From Chloroflexota bacterium (lineage in GTDB: Bacteria > Chloroflexota > Dehalococcoidia > Lucifugimonadales > UBA3495), in NCBI GenBank assembly GCA_027623675.1, contig JAQBVF010000015.1, positions 17,606 to 81,605 of the forward strand: DNA of 64,000 bases, given 5' to 3'. The notes beneath the pieces were generated by a model that was given only the letters and a program-made list of their open reading frames with translations, was not told the DNA's origin and did not search any database. A program made the translations under genes and the position numbers. Below are positions 2,662-43,852 of this stretch, one piece after another. Every line of letters starts with the position of its first letter. Within the stretch, counting starts at the first letter, position 1.

Positions 2662-2739
2662 TGGGGCGAGCGACGGGATTCGAACCCGTGATCTCCTGTG
2701 CCACAGACAGGCGCCTTAGGCCTCTTGGCTACGCTCGCC
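2662..2739 (-). tRNA. tRNA-His(GTG)
   Basis: Reverse complement GGCGAGCGTAGCCAAG...CCTGT CT GTG GC ACAGG...GTTCGAATC...CGCTCGCC CCA; encoded G-1:C73 pair typical of tRNA-His. Confidence 0.96.
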
Positions 2740-39337: not shown

Positions 39338-40822
39338 ATGAGCAGCGGATCATTCGCCGGCAAGCTGGCCGCGCCCGAATTTCCGGAAAGGCTGGAGTGG
39401 ATCAATTCTGACCGGCCCGTGACCCTGCGGGGACTCAAGGGAAAGATCGTGGTCCTGGACTTCTGGACCTACTGTTGAATCAACTGCGCCCACATCTTTC
39501 CGCAGTTGCGGAAACTGGAAAATAAGTACGCCAATGAACTGGCGGTGATCGGTGTCCACACGGCCAAATTCCCCAACGAAAAGGACACCGGCAATCTGGC
39601 CAGCGCGGTGCGCCGGTACGAACTGGAGCACCCGGTGATCAACGACTCTGAATTCCAGGTTTGGCAGCAGTATTCCTGCCGGGCCTGGCCGACGTTGATG
39701 TTCATCGACCCCCAGGGAAATGTGATTGGCAAACACGAAGGCGAGATGAGTTATGACGCCTTCGATGGACTACTCGGCAAGATGTTGGCCGAGTTTGACG
39801 CCCAGGGTCTTTTAAATCACGAACCGTTGCCGTCCAAGTTTCGATCGGCGCCGGAGACGCTGCTCAGTTTTCCCGGAAAGGTGCTGGCCGACGGGCCGAG
39901 CGGCCGCCTTTTCATCGCCGACACCAACCATAACCGTGTCGTGGTAACTTCACTGGACGGCGCTGTGCGGGACGTCATCGGCAGCGGCCAAGAGGGTCTG
40001 ACTGATGGCGATCTCGCCGGCTGCGCCTTCAACCATCCGCAGGGCATGGCGCTGGATGGCGAGACGCTGTATGTGGCCGATACGGAGAACCACGCGATAC
40101 GCAAGATTGACTTGGGGACGGGGAAGCTGGCGACCATCGCCGGCACCGGCGAGCAGGGACATACCAGGGAAGGCACCCGCCCGGGCCGGACCATGGAACT
40201 TAGCTCCCCGTTCGACCTGGTGCACCATAACGGAATCCTGTATATCGCCATGGCCGGGATCCATCAACTATGGTCCATGGATCTGGATTCGGGCATGGCC
40301 GGACCCTTCGCTGGAAACGGCAAAGAGGCGATCACCGACGGGCCGTTGGCGAACGCGGAGCTGGCCCAGCCGTGCGGCATCGCCACCGACGGGGTCAAGC
40401 TCTACTTCGCCGACAGTGAGACCAGCTCGGTGCGGTCGGCAGATATCAACCCGGCGGGCAAAGTGCAGACCATCGTGGGCCTGGACCTGTTCGTCTTTGG
40501 CGACGTGGACGGTTCGGACCACCGGGTCAGGCTGCAACACCCCATCGGCATCGCCCACCACGACGGCGTGATCTATATCGCCGACACCTACAACCACAAG
40601 ATCAAGCGGGTGCTGCCCGCCACCAGGAGCGCCTTCACCGTCTTGGGAACCGGGGCCTTCGGCCATACTGACGGGGCGGCCGAGGTAGCCCAGTTCTCCG
40701 AGCCCAGCGGCATCAGCTTCGCCAACGGCAAGATGTACATCGCCGACACCAACAACCACGCCATCCGGGTAGCGGACGTGGATTCGGGAGAGGTTTCCAC
40801 CTTTGAGATAACCGGCCTGTGA
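39338..40822 (+). CDS. Thioredoxin-like + NHL-repeat protein (NHLRC2/SOQ1-like), probable selenoprotein (Sec47)
   Basis: ATG 39338 gives [61 protein letters not shown], in frame with track ORF 39506..40822; NHL repeats [20 protein letters not shown]. Confidence 0.88.
39497..39514 (+). promoter_or_regulatory. Candidate bacterial SECIS hairpin
   Basis: TTTCCGC-AGTT-GCGGAAA; loop starts 25 nt after the UGA and has GU in it. Confidence 0.6.
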
Positions 40823-40925
40823 ATCGGAGCTAAAAGGCTGATCTTGGGCGTGGGGCGGGCCACACGGCCCGGGCAAAAGGTACCATTCGTCTCTGTTGCC
40901 CTCATACCGGCGGATATACAGTATT

Positions 40926-41380
40926 GATGTCAGGGGAAATGAGCGGACAGGACCGGACCGACGCACCCATCATGGCAGGCGAAACCCGGACTGGTCCGAG
41001 ACCCTAGTACGGCACAACAACGTGGAAAGCCTCATTCACACGGCAAATCGGGATTGTCCAGCCCGTGTCAGGGCGGCATCCATCAGGAGGTGAAAACGGT
41101 CCGAAAATACATATTGGATCATGCTTGGAAGTTCCCGTCTGCGGCCCCTACGGCCGTAAAAGTAGAGGAACTAGAAGCTATACCTGCCAGGTGGGGGCGG
41201 CAAGCCCATCGGCTCTTAAATTGACATAATTAAAACCCAATAACCGTCAGCTTCGCCTGCCCAACAGCGATTTAGCGAATCAGCAGGAGGAAAAGGTTAA
41301 GCGAACACGGTGGGTTCATCCGGTAGTGCATGCCGGCGAGACAAAAGGGGCTGTGTTATACCATCTGGTAACTAAGAGGC
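40926..41380 (+). ncRNA. Candidate large, highly structured ncRNA (OLE-like)
   Basis: About 20 nested helices, many with G-U pairs, joined by purine-rich linkers; no credible ORF; own terminator (see findings). Confidence 0.7.
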
Positions 41381-41412
41381 CAGGGGATCAATCAAGATAG
41401 CCTGGCCTTTTT
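41377..41412 (+). terminator. Intrinsic terminator of the candidate ncRNA
   Basis: aggccagg ... cctggcct followed by a T-run. Confidence 0.75.
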
Positions 41413-41781
41413 CGTTGTTTGATTCCAGTCCGCGGATACGCGAATCGCCCCCTGGGGGTTGGCCGGGCTATCTTAGCCGGTTGCCCGGATATCCAAGCCG
41501 GCTTTGTCCGAGTGCCGCACTAGGCGGTGGTCAATGGCCAGGACCCCTTGCCAAGTTGGGTCCCCTTTGACTTATACCAGTACCGCATCGCCTGGGCGTC
41601 GGCCTCCTTGGCTCAGAATGGGTCAATATCAAACTGAGATTCCCGAATCATGAGAATTTGCCATGATTGGGATTACCTCGGTATGACCCAGGCATCCAAG
41701 TCCGGGCGTTTCTGGGAGGAAAAGCGGGGGCATCAGTGGTCTCGGGGCATACTCACCGCAGGTGCGGACGGGTCCCGGCAT

Positions 41782-42645
41782 CTACTCCGGAGACTGGCTG
41801 TGGATGACCAAGACGCGGTCCAGGTGGGCCAGGTCTTGTTCGACGCTGGTGGCGCCCTCGGGGAAATGCTGCAACGCCAATCCTTGGACCACCGGGACCT
41901 GTTCCGGGTCCAGTTCCAAGAGGATGATGCCGTGGTCCTTGAGCTTGTCTTCAGACTGGATCAGCAGACGGCGGACCAAGTCCAGGCCATCCGGTCCACC
42001 GTCCAGGGCCAACAGCGGTTCTTTCTGGACCTCTGGCTGCAGGGTCGGTATCCGGCCGGTGGGGATGTAGGGCAGGTTGGCCACGATGAGGTCTACCGGC
42101 TCCGGCACTGCGTCCAACAGGTCACCGATGGCCAGGGTCACCCGGTCGGCCACGCCGTGTCCCCTGATGTTGTAAGCGGCCACATCCAGCGCCGCGTCGG
42201 ATACGTCGACGGCGAAGATCCTGGCGGCGGGCAGGTGAATGGCCAGGTTGATGGCTATCGCGCCGGTGCCGGTGCCAACATCGGCGATCACCAAGTCCCG
42301 GGATTCCATGCCCATCATGGCCATGAATAGGGCATGCTCCACCAGGCCCTCGGTTTCCGGGCGGGGTATCAGGACCGACGGGTTTACAACCACACTGATG
42401 CCGTAGAACTCGCGCTGCCCCAGGATATAGGCCAGTGGCTCCCGCTCGAGCCGGCGCGCCAGCAGTTGTTCCAGGCCGGCTTGCTGTTGCCCGGAAACCT
42501 CGGACTCCTGTTCGGCGAACAGGCTCTGCCTCGGCATGCGCATCACGGTCATCACCATCACTTCGGCCTCAAGGCGGGCGTCGGGGATCCCAGCCGATTC
42601 CAGTCTCTGGTGGGTGTCTTGAATCACGTTGCGGAGGATCGCCAT
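41782..42645 (-). CDS. prmC: Release factor glutamine methyltransferase
   Basis: EPLAYILG.REFYG, VLIPRPETE, DVGTGTGAI, ANLPYI, ALDGGPDGL; adjacent to prfA. Confidence 0.96.
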   Translation of the reverse strand: MAILRNVIQDTHQRLESAGIPDARLEAEVMVMTVMRMPRQSLFAEQESEVSGQQQAGLEQLLARRLEREPLAYILGQREFYGISVVVNPSVLIPRPETEGLVEHALFMAMMGMESRDLVIADVGTGTGAIAINLAIHLPAARIFAVDVSDAALDVAAYNIRGHGVADRVTLAIGDLLDAVPEPVDLIVANLPYIPTGRIPTLQPEVQKEPLLALDGGPDGLDLVRRLLIQSEDKLKDHGIILLELDPEQVPVVQGLALQHFPEGATSVEQDLAHLDRVLVIHSQSPE

Positions 42646-42772: not shown

Positions 42773-43852
42773 TTAGGCGGTGGCATCGGCCAGGAGTCGT
42801 TCCTCTTCCCAGGCGCTTAGCTTGTCGAACATGTCTTCCAGACCGCCCGCCATCAGCCGGGGAATGTCGTGGAAGTTCTCGTTGCTGCGGTGGTCGGTCA
42901 CCCGGTCTTGCGGGTAGTTGTAGGTGCGAATCTTCTCCGACCGCTCGGCCCCGGCAACCTGGGAACGCCGTGTCTCGCTCAACTCGGCATCCTTCCGGAT
43001 CTGCTCCGCCTCGTACAACCTGGACCTGAGCATCGACATGGCCCGCTGCTTGTTCTTGTGCTGGGAACGCTCGTCCTGGCAGACTACCGTCAGGCCGGAA
43101 GGTTCGTGGACGATGCGCACGGCCGTGGCCACTTTGTTGACGTTCTGACCGCCGTGGCCGCCGGCATGGAAGATATCGATGCGGAGGTCGTTGGGGTCGA
43201 CCTTCACTTCAACTTCGTCGACCACTGGTAGCACAACCACCGTGGCGGTTGATGTGTGGATGCGGCCCTGAGTTTCGGTGTTGGGGATGCGCTGAACGCG
43301 GTGAACGCCGCTTTCAAACTTCATCCGGCTGAAAACGCCTTTGCCTTCGATCTGGAAGACAATCTTGTTGAACCCACCCACCTCAGTGGAGTTGGAGTCC
43401 ATCACATCCACGGACCAACCCTGGTTCACCGCGTAGCGGGAATAGGCCCGGTAGAGATCGGCCGCGAATATCCCGGCCTCAGCCCCACCGGTGCCGGCGC
43501 GAATCTCCACGATCACGTCCCGCTCGTCATTGGGGTTCTTGGGGAGCAGGGCCAGCCGCAGCGTCTGGGACAGCTGTTCCAGCTTGGCCTGGGCCTCTTC
43601 CAGTTCTTCCTTGGCCATCAGGACCAGCTCAGGGTCGGAACCGTCGCGGACGAGCGACTGCAGGTCCTCGATCTCCTCTACTAAACCTCGGTAGCGGCCG
43701 CCGATATCGACCAGGTTCTCCAGAGAAGCCCGTTCTTTGGCCAACTCTTGGACACGTTCGAAATCGGCCGCGACCTCAGGGTCTCCCATGGATTCTTCAA
43801 TCTCATGGTAGCGGCGAATAACGGGGTCGAGTTTGTCCAGCATGGTGACCAT
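42773..43852 (-). CDS. prfA: Peptide chain release factor 1
   Basis: EIRAGTGG.EA, ESGVHRVQRIPNTE (PxT), GGQNVNK, IRTYNYPQDRVTDHR; start may be 43843. Confidence 0.97.
   Translation of the reverse strand: MVTMLDKLDPVIRRYHEIEESMGDPEVAADFERVQELAKERASLENLVDIGGRYRGLVEEIEDLQSLVRDGSDPELVLMAKEELEEAQAKLEQLSQTLRLALLPKNPNDERDVIVEIRAGTGGAEAGIFAADLYRAYSRYAVNQGWSVDVMDSNSTEVGGFNKIVFQIEGKGVFSRMKFESGVHRVQRIPNTETQGRIHTSTATVVVLPVVDEVEVKVDPNDLRIDIFHAGGHGGQNVNKVATAVRIVHEPSGLTVVCQDERSQHKNKQRAMSMLRSRLYEAEQIRKDAELSETRRSQVAGAERSEKIRTYNYPQDRVTDHRSNENFHDIPRLMAGGLEDMFDKLSAWEEERLLADATA

Follow-up and report, generated by a model that had tools for sequence, protein, structure and literature searches.

Predicted structured RNAs with a conserved small open reading frame in Dehalococcoidia/SAR202-type Chloroflexota

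OLE RNA is the described large RNA that the locus treated here had been thought to resemble. According to one account, the ole gene is frequently immediately adjacent to oapA, the product of which is weakly related to CNNM/DUF21 proteins, and OLE hits number 2,822 in Bacillota and 24 elsewhere (PMC11332333). An earlier note, made from the sequence alone, had placed a possible RNA of this type in a Chloroflexota bacterium (assembly GCA_027623675.1), in a stretch of 64,000 nucleotides (nt) of contig JAQBVF010000015.1 (positions 17,606 to 81,605, forward strand). This whole stretch is referred to below as the window. We analyzed the element, which is encoded on the plus strand between a thioredoxin-like/NHL-repeat gene and prmC (window positions 40855-41413), and conclude that it is not OLE RNA and belongs, as the most diverged copy, to a so far undescribed family of predicted structured RNAs. 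As the family carries a conserved micropeptide open reading frame (ORF), it is not purely noncoding. Our favored reading, which we hold to be probable, is that these RNAs are self-contained, translationally gated micropeptide mRNAs or dual-function RNAs.

The suggestion of a compact OLE variant in a new lineage does not hold. Searches with Rfam 15 (4227 models) identified only two tRNAs in the whole window at the gathering score. At an E-value (E) of 10 or below, the region 40750-41700 gave only a 12-bit match to the MS2 hairpin (E 6.5) at 41637-41666. Nothing relevant was found at E <= 1 in 28 loci of relatives (8 + 20). Weak matches there to the L25 leader (E 0.39) and HOTTIP_3 (E 0.73) were set aside, as was Thr_leader (E 0.006 and 0.01), which lies ~1.4 kb from the element in one locus (L079). 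The OLE model itself (RF01071) had no match at E <= 1 in the whole 3.07-Mb genome, a search that is weak alone because 14 control genomes gave none either. The genes flanking the element are the NHL-repeat gene and prmC, so that oapA is not adjacent, as the earlier note had recognized; the only CNNM/DUF21-type gene of the genome (PF01595) is on a contig other than that of the window. The same note had excluded RNase P, tmRNA and signal recognition particle (SRP) RNA. In agreement with this, there were no Rfam matches to these three or to ROOL, GOLLD, raiA or HEARO in the window or the 28 loci, and ARAGORN found no tRNA or tmRNA at 40500-41800. The other suggestion, an undescribed large RNA class, stands insofar as the element is conserved, covarying and undescribed; the micropeptide ORF is what it left out. 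We found no published account of such an element among the titles and abstract openings of the literature on RNAs of SAR202, Dehalococcoidia and Chloroflexi.

Family members and their small open reading frame

BLASTN was of limited use, because the window copy is too diverged. Searched against 60 relatives, the window element gave only two matches of ~50 nt, at 41084-41136, and a search with a canonical copy did not find the window copy. Both of the matched loci read GGAGGTG, ATG, and then a short frame MV.KF..EH.WKFP. A degenerate DNA pattern for this peptide motif was found in 12 of 203 genomes of the taxonomic family, including that of the window, and in 8 of the 19 other genomes of the genus; a reversed control pattern gave 4 matches, and three pattern matches outside the genus were judged chance-like. 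A longer pattern that includes the Shine-Dalgarno (SD) sequence identified 8 loci in 185,579 species genomes, in addition to 13 metagenome loci. All eight are from records titled Dehalococcoidia, SAR202 or Chloroflexota metagenome-assembled genomes, which bears out the earlier placing of the element in this group. Viral contigs had no matches to a related motif pattern. Within the genus, full-length copies are 73-83% identical over ~520 nt, and their flanks are not alignable.

More distant members were identified with a covariance model (R1) of the 150-nt core, consisting of the SD, the ORF and a long hairpin, built from alignment A3. At E <= 0.01, hits to this model were present in 44 of 151 related genomes, not all of them of the same genus or family: 8 of the 19 remaining genomes of the genus, 32 of 90 in the family and 11 of 60 in the other families of the order. 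Of 150 further genomes, taken evenly across the rest of the class, only one had a hit. The matches outside the genus score 20-63 bits. These distant matches have independent homology support, because the 3' domain, which is outside R1, is conserved as well: downstream of the modelled core are AAGCC-GGC-GGCUCCGC ... GGUC-NNNN-GACC ... GCGGAGCC-AAA-GGU. We conclude from the genomes searched that a single order of uncultured Dehalococcoidia/SAR202-type Chloroflexota accounts for nearly all of the family.

All members share the SD and start codon, the small ORF, the long hairpin and the 3' domain, and many have a terminator; predicted transcription units range from roughly 320 to 600 nt. Upstream of the SD is a helix of the type GGAGAGG/CCUCUCC (AGAGGGG/CCUCUCU or GGGAGAC/GUCUCCC in other genera). 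It is a short hairpin in most lineages and is expanded to a domain of ~230 nt in the genus of the window and three other genera. Its counterpart in the window is AAUGAG/CUCAUU, an equivalence judged by eye, as MAFFT does not place the 5' strand of the window copy correctly.

The coding analysis comprised 56 distinct nucleotide versions of the ORF. These encode a conserved 20-residue core, MV[RK]xFV[LW][ND]HxWKFP[SC]xxPxG, in which His9 (CAT 46, CAC 10) and Pro14 (CCT 47, CCG 5, CCC 4) are present in 56 of 56 versions, Trp11 in 55 and Phe13 in 51 (TTC 40, TTT 11). Two residues are drawn from both of their codon families: Arg3 (CGN 12, AGR 6) and Ser15 (AGT 21, TCT 3). The first-codon column is ATG in 49 versions, GTG in 3 and TTG in 1, and the start codon is at a fixed spacing from the SD in these 53 of 56; in one further version (L106) the ATG is displaced downstream by one codon. 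For the three codon positions, mean entropy is 0.96/0.86/1.20. The frame is open across the 20-codon core in 55 of 56 versions, the sole in-frame stop being in L039 (plus strand). ORF lengths are 20-60 residues (median 26), and past about codon 25 the nucleotides remain conserved but fall into different reading frames in close relatives; thus, only the core is constrained as protein. On these comparative grounds we conclude that the small ORF is a real coding frame. The earlier note had seen no credible ORF in the gap, where the frame at 41096-41224 is a homologue of the one conserved in the 56 versions.

A profile of 35 peptides (A7), searched against 1.84 billion proteins, matched 42 cluster representatives, all of 27-146 residues. 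The match is N-terminal in most of these clusters and in the others lies behind an unrelated extension of 9-74 residues; no fusion to a known domain was seen among the 42. A word-indexed protein search returned only 8 proteins, all close relatives, and Pfam and NCBIfam at E <= 10 hold no family for the peptide. PBCV1_P7, matched by one 22-residue paralogue at E 0.061, was treated as noise.

Several other ideas about the ORF were set aside. A SECIS-type hairpin at the TGA of a short paralogue (L003/L017) was rejected, as other members lack an in-frame TGA there. An apparent second mini-ORF before the terminator, MVRHxNQVR in L085 and L106, is explained by a conserved GGUGAGG motif and the terminator arm, and its frame is not kept in other members. 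The E-x-x-x-Y motif of PqqA-like precursors is absent. The logic of ArfA/BrfA-type non-stop mRNAs does not apply, given the stop at codons 21-29 in most members.

Some genomes have several or tandem copies. Four R1 matches are present in one genome (G016), and tandem copies are present in the loci L017 and L039. L017 (of G016; 1470-1560 and 1712-1790) and L039 contain short paralogues of the ORF unit in tandem, MTLKLRIEHNWKWPCPTPADSP and MVQKFVWEHNWKFPCPNSTG, each followed by its own hairpin. The third copy of L039 contains an in-frame stop (MVLKFV*EHNWKYP...), and some copies are thus decaying. In another genome (G154), two copies on one contig (L114 and L115, at ~197339 and ~414850) are identical in the first 75 nt of the core and in the peptide, which suggests a recent duplication.

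Conserved, covarying helices surround and follow the ORF. Their support comes from three comparative alignments. In the core alignment (A6, 37 sequences), 90.0% of cells are paired, and 126 cells show double changes compared with 35.3 +/- 5.6 in shuffles (0 of 500 as high) and 11-29 in slid controls; A6 was fitted to the structure of the model, which inflates the pair counts, and the sequences are related, so that shuffle controls overstate significance. In the long hairpin, the 5' arm of which is codons 17-20 at the end of the conserved ORF core, all 11 pairs have double changes and 96.5% of cells are paired. The 3' domain was assessed in a plain MAFFT alignment (A5, 18 sequences), where 9 of 14 pairs have double changes, with 30 double-change cells compared with 9.1 +/- 2.9 in shuffles (0 of 500) and 5-13 in slid controls. 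The family versions of its closing helix and hairpin therefore covary on an alignment made from sequence only. For the whole element within the genus (A2), 30 pairs have double changes compared with 13.3 +/- 2.7 in shuffles and 15-22 in slid controls, support that is weaker because the sequences are close relatives. Covariation among collected homologues, which the earlier note had proposed as a check, is thus above both kinds of control.

The ribosome-binding site is part of this fold. GGAG of the SD pairs with UUCC of the Phe-Pro codons (97.3% paired in the 37 sequences), and AUGGU, which includes the start codon, pairs with ACCAU of the Asn/Asp-His codons, becoming AUGAU:AUCAU in L085, L090 and L092. 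In single-sequence folds of 15 predicted transcripts, the unpaired probability of the AUG is at or below 0.13 in nine.

The family members appear to be transcribed on their own. In 7 of 40 loci, a sigma-70-like site (score of at least 9 of 12) ends 45-64 nt upstream of the start codon, and two more such sites are at -112 and -122. In L083, TTGACA-17-TATACT and a 14-bp terminator delimit a predicted RNA of ~320 nt. Of 43 loci, 30 have a hairpin with a T-run downstream, which in 12 cases is 136-164 nt past the long hairpin; the terminator script is crude and reported nothing in the other 13. On the minus strand, a crude consensus scan of the 40 loci identified no recurring promoter-like site. 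Neighboring genes vary by locus, and the downstream gene is often convergent. We conclude that the element is an independent transcription unit, as far as predicted signals indicate.

A gated micropeptide and its alternatives

According to the reading that we consider probable, the fold would keep the ribosome-binding site closed, and the peptide would therefore be made only when some cue opens this site. As it translates, the ribosome would then open the long hairpin, and the 3' domain would stabilize or regulate the mRNA, or have a role of its own. Given such gating, the RNA would serve as a translational gate for the peptide or as a dual-function RNA in which the 3' domain has its own role. 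A bolder form of this proposal, which we regard as decidedly speculative and quite unlikely, is a nascent-peptide-gated RNA class: putative stalling by an HxWKFP sensor chain would unlock the hairpin at the ribosome-binding site and the long hairpin, exposing a trans-acting or protein-binding 3' domain. Were it true, the RNA would be regulatory, coupled to translation and exclusive to SAR202-type Dehalococcoidia, which are abundant and lack a genetic system.

Several observations weigh against a gated micropeptide. Conservation of codons 17-20 (P.G) may be owed to the hairpin rather than to the peptide, and the SD:UUCC helix varies too little for covariation to be informative. The pair counts of the core alignment are, as noted, inflated, and the relatedness of the sequences makes the shuffle controls overstate significance. 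Eleven of the 19 other genomes of the genus (completeness 62-92%) have no copy, and the element is therefore dispensable. In the window, the first codon is ACG (41096-98) where relatives have ATG, so that a canonical start is lacking, and no promoter was found by consensus scan. Only 74 of 135 genus-consensus pairs hold in the MAFFT row of the window copy, a figure that is low partly because of misalignment, and among the 15 single-sequence folds none leaves the SD and start more open than that of the window copy (unpaired probabilities 0.61 and 0.55).

Some of these features would be expected if the window copy were a decaying, non-functional relic, which is compatible with any of the family-level readings and which we consider possible but doubtful. 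In addition to the change from ATG to ACG, the low number of consensus pairs and the missing promoter, this copy is the most diverged, is missed by BLASTN with a canonical copy and occupies a location unique to its genome. Against decay, none of the four invariant residues has been lost from the peptide core, which is intact, and 42 codons pass without a stop; the SD helix, 3' hairpin and terminator are intact as well. Moreover, an unrelated groundwater study yielded 151-nt contigs of a related strain, at 94-98% identity, in which the ACG is retained. Inside the element these show 3 and 6 differences, each over 151 nt, fewer than the 9 differences and one indel in ~122 nt of the 3' flank, although these are small numbers from single low-depth contigs. 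On our favored reading, the window copy is either weakly translated or now RNA-only. A GTG at 41090 is in frame with its ORF but lies inside the SD.

For the family as a whole, the main rival is a cis-acting leader or arrest-peptide riboregulator. The HxWKFP nascent chain would stall the ribosome on cue, the stalled ribosome would melt the SD and long hairpins and thereby switch the 3' domain or the terminator, and the free peptide would be functionless. The constraint on only the first ~20 codons, followed by tails that vary in frame and length (20 to 60 residues), is what such a switch would leave, as are the identities of the invariant residues (His, Trp, Phe and Pro); arrest peptides such as TnaC and SecM typically have aromatic residues and proline. 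The ORF also enters the 5' arm of a covarying hairpin, and the family ends in a terminator. However, there is no conserved downstream gene, and the next gene is often convergent, including prmC on the minus strand of the window. Nor did inspection by eye reveal consistent complementarity that would let the long hairpin, through its 3' arm, pair instead with the 5' strand of the closing helix. We therefore regard this explanation as unlikely. Very unlikely, in our estimate, is a purely noncoding large structured RNA, OLE-like or of another new class, with the open frame a by-product of RNA conservation. The strong covariation of the helices, the window copy without ATG and the unconstrained ORF tails are in line with it, and ~560 nt is near the roughly 600 nt given for OLE. 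It does not account for synonymous third-position changes at invariant residues, for Ser and Arg each from two codon families, for the fixed SD spacing of the start codon or for the open core frame; the absence of any Rfam match and of an adjacent oapA also counts against it. A type I toxin-antitoxin-like locus, in which the folded mRNA of a small toxic peptide would be silenced by SD sequestration and an antisense RNA, shares with the family a (predicted) stand-alone folded transcript with a sequestered SD, a distribution that is patchy even within the genus, variable contexts, and several or tandem copies in some genomes. Most type I toxins are membrane peptides. The peptide core here has no hydrophobic stretch of membrane-spanning length, its order-wide conservation with invariant His, Trp, Phe and Pro is unlike that of such toxins, and the crude minus-strand scan gave no sign of an antisense promoter in the 40 loci. 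This explanation is accordingly highly improbable.

If the gated-micropeptide reading is right, an order of abundant, uncultured Chloroflexota has retained a micropeptide gene whose ribosome-binding site is hidden by the covarying RNA structure around it. The element escapes gene callers as well as Rfam. A false sighting of OLE outside Bacillota is removed, and a real, unlisted element takes its place. It offers a small, concrete and testable case of RNA structure coupled to small-protein synthesis in a lineage for which almost no regulation is known, and the 20-residue core is short enough for synthesis.

The window copy and its genomic setting

The window element is alignable end to end with the elements of 19 relatives, which are 491-579 nt long, and its core scores 70.5 bits against R1. 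In the alignment of these 20 copies, the conserved block extends from ~40855 to the terminator, and sequence outside it does not align. The earlier note had set the start at 40926, about 70 nt too far downstream. Features of the element and its surroundings are listed in Table 1.

Table 1. Predicted parts of the element and neighboring genes, in window coordinates.
Feature	Position	Strand	Basis and remarks
Whole element, long-5'-domain type	40855..41413	+	End-to-end alignment; R1 score
5' domain	40855..41085	+	Alignments; contains AAUGAG 40938-43/CUCAUU 41031-36
Shine-Dalgarno GGAGGUG	41086..41092	+	41086-89 and 41091 pair with 41132-35 and 41130 (Phe-Pro codons UUC CCG); 5/5 pairs standard
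Small ORF TVRKYILDHAWKFPSAAPTA	41096..41224	+	First codon ACG; stop TGA 41222-24; 20-codon core 41096-41155
Long hairpin, overlaps end of ORF core	41143..41198	+	Covariance-model alignment; imperfect; arms about 41143-41154 (5') and 41188-41198 (3'); 7/14 mapped pairs standard
3' domain	41199..41373	+	Closing helix, inner helix, hairpin
Closing helix GGCUCUU/AAGGGGCU	41211-17/41345-52	+	Placed by eye from family consensus
Inner helix	41235-38/41313-16	+	
Hairpin CCGGUA/UGCCGG	41320-25/41331-36	+	6/6 pairs standard
Intrinsic terminator AAGAGGCCAGG, 16-nt loop, CCUGGCC, U-run	41374..41412	+	11/12 stem pairs standard
Thioredoxin-like/NHL-repeat gene	39506-40822	+	Upstream flank
prmC	41782-42645	-	Downstream flank, convergent
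prfA	42773-43852	-	Beyond prmC
Two tRNA genes	2557-2629, 2665-2738	-	Sole Rfam matches of the window at gathering score

All of the helix strands that the earlier note had listed, including a terminator at 41377-41412, were found in place by base-by-base check. Among them are GAUGUC 40926-31/GGCAUC 41075-80, AAUGAG 40938-43/CUCAUU 41031-36, GGACCGG 40950-56/CUGGUCC 40991-97, AGGUG 41088-92/UACCU 41181-85, AGUUCC 41130-35/GGAACU 41167-72, GGUGGG 41190-95/CCCAUC 41205-10, CUCUUA 41213-18/UAAGAG 41373-78 and AACCCA 41234-39/UGGGUU 41311-16. As helices, they fared unevenly. Five match helices kept in relatives (AAUGAG/CUCAUU, GGUCCGA/UUGGAUC, AACCCA/UGGGUU, CCGGUA/UGCCGG and the terminator), and three compete with pairings that the family supports (AGUUCC/GGAACU, GGUGGG/CCCAUC and CUCUUA/UAAGAG); all others are candidate helices specific to the window. 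The choice of the plus strand as the RNA agrees with fold energies. For 40926-41412, the plus strand folds at -169.5 kcal/mol (z = -2.10, with 2 of 100 dinucleotide shuffles as good), and the minus strand has z = -0.37, with 29 of 100 shuffles as good. The expected advantage over shuffled controls is thus present but modest.

A homologue of the terminator is found in 17 of the 19 other aligned copies; L027, L036 and L039 lack it or have something else in its place. The terminator of the window was missed by a simple scan because its loop exceeds 8 nt. Part of it recurs in inverted form: 41394-41407 (AAGATAGCCTGGCC, terminator loop and 3' arm) and 41461-41474 (GGCCGGGCTATCTT), 53 nt downstream, are 14-nt inverted repeats with 93% complementarity, which may form a second hairpin or represent a partial inverted copy of the terminator. 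At the other end, the start of the 5' domain (window 40857-40900, and L068 and L078-L080) contains a direct repeat, G(A/U)CC(A/G)UU(G/C)GGCCC, with a spacing of ~24 nt. Four genera keep the repeat, which could act as an operator in the DNA or bind a protein as part of the RNA.

The location of the window copy is unique to its genome. In 11 other genomes of the genus, the gap between the NHL-repeat gene and prmC contains 159-1297 nt of other DNA. In several genomes of the genus (L052, L063, L065 and L066), a gap of ~510-570 nt has an apparent small membrane-protein ORF, the motif of which (...SDEYHQ.FV.GR...) we take to be VanZ-like, and in another (L062) the gap contains repeated hairpin-like blocks with runs of N. 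In the window, the ~370 nt between the terminator and the 3' end of prmC (41414-41781) lack a Pfam-supported ORF. This is the stretch where the related groundwater strain differs most. An ORF at 41650-42330 overlaps prmC and has no family match.

Canonical copies in the genus adjoin a divergently transcribed GAF-GAF-HisKA_3 sensor kinase (L007, L010-L015 and others). An hpt-like phosphoribosyltransferase gene is often downstream of canonical copies, but only in part of the genus. This neighborhood is not kept outside the genus, and neither gene was found in the window genome at the thresholds used.

Comparison with known systems

OLE RNA and the element are of similar length (~560 nt here and ~600 nt for OLE), both have many helices, and both have uncultured or extremophile-type bacteria as their source. 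They differ in that the element does not match the OLE covariance model, has a conserved, translated-looking ORF, lacks an adjacent oapA and belongs to Chloroflexota rather than Bacillota.

Small peptides encoded within structured RNAs provide further parallels in organization. The hok and aapA type I toxin mRNAs resemble the family in standing alone, in their length of a few hundred nt, in a fold that occludes the ribosome-binding site, and in their patchy distribution and variable locations. Unlike theirs, the peptide here is non-hydrophobic and strongly conserved, and no antisense promoter was seen in the consensus scan of the 40 loci. The leaders ermCL, TnaC and SecM similarly comprise a short ORF with conserved N-terminal or central residues, followed by hairpins that the ribosome must open, and Trp and Pro are among the invariant residues. 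In contrast to these leaders, the family has no conserved downstream gene, and by eye no anti-terminator pairing was found. SgrS/SgrT, RNAIII/delta-haemolysin and SR1/SR1P have no sequence relation to the element, in which, unlike in these RNAs, the ribosome-binding site would be locked by the ORF's own codons. They are nonetheless alike in plan, each being a stand-alone transcript with its own terminator, a short conserved ORF and conserved structure outside the ORF.

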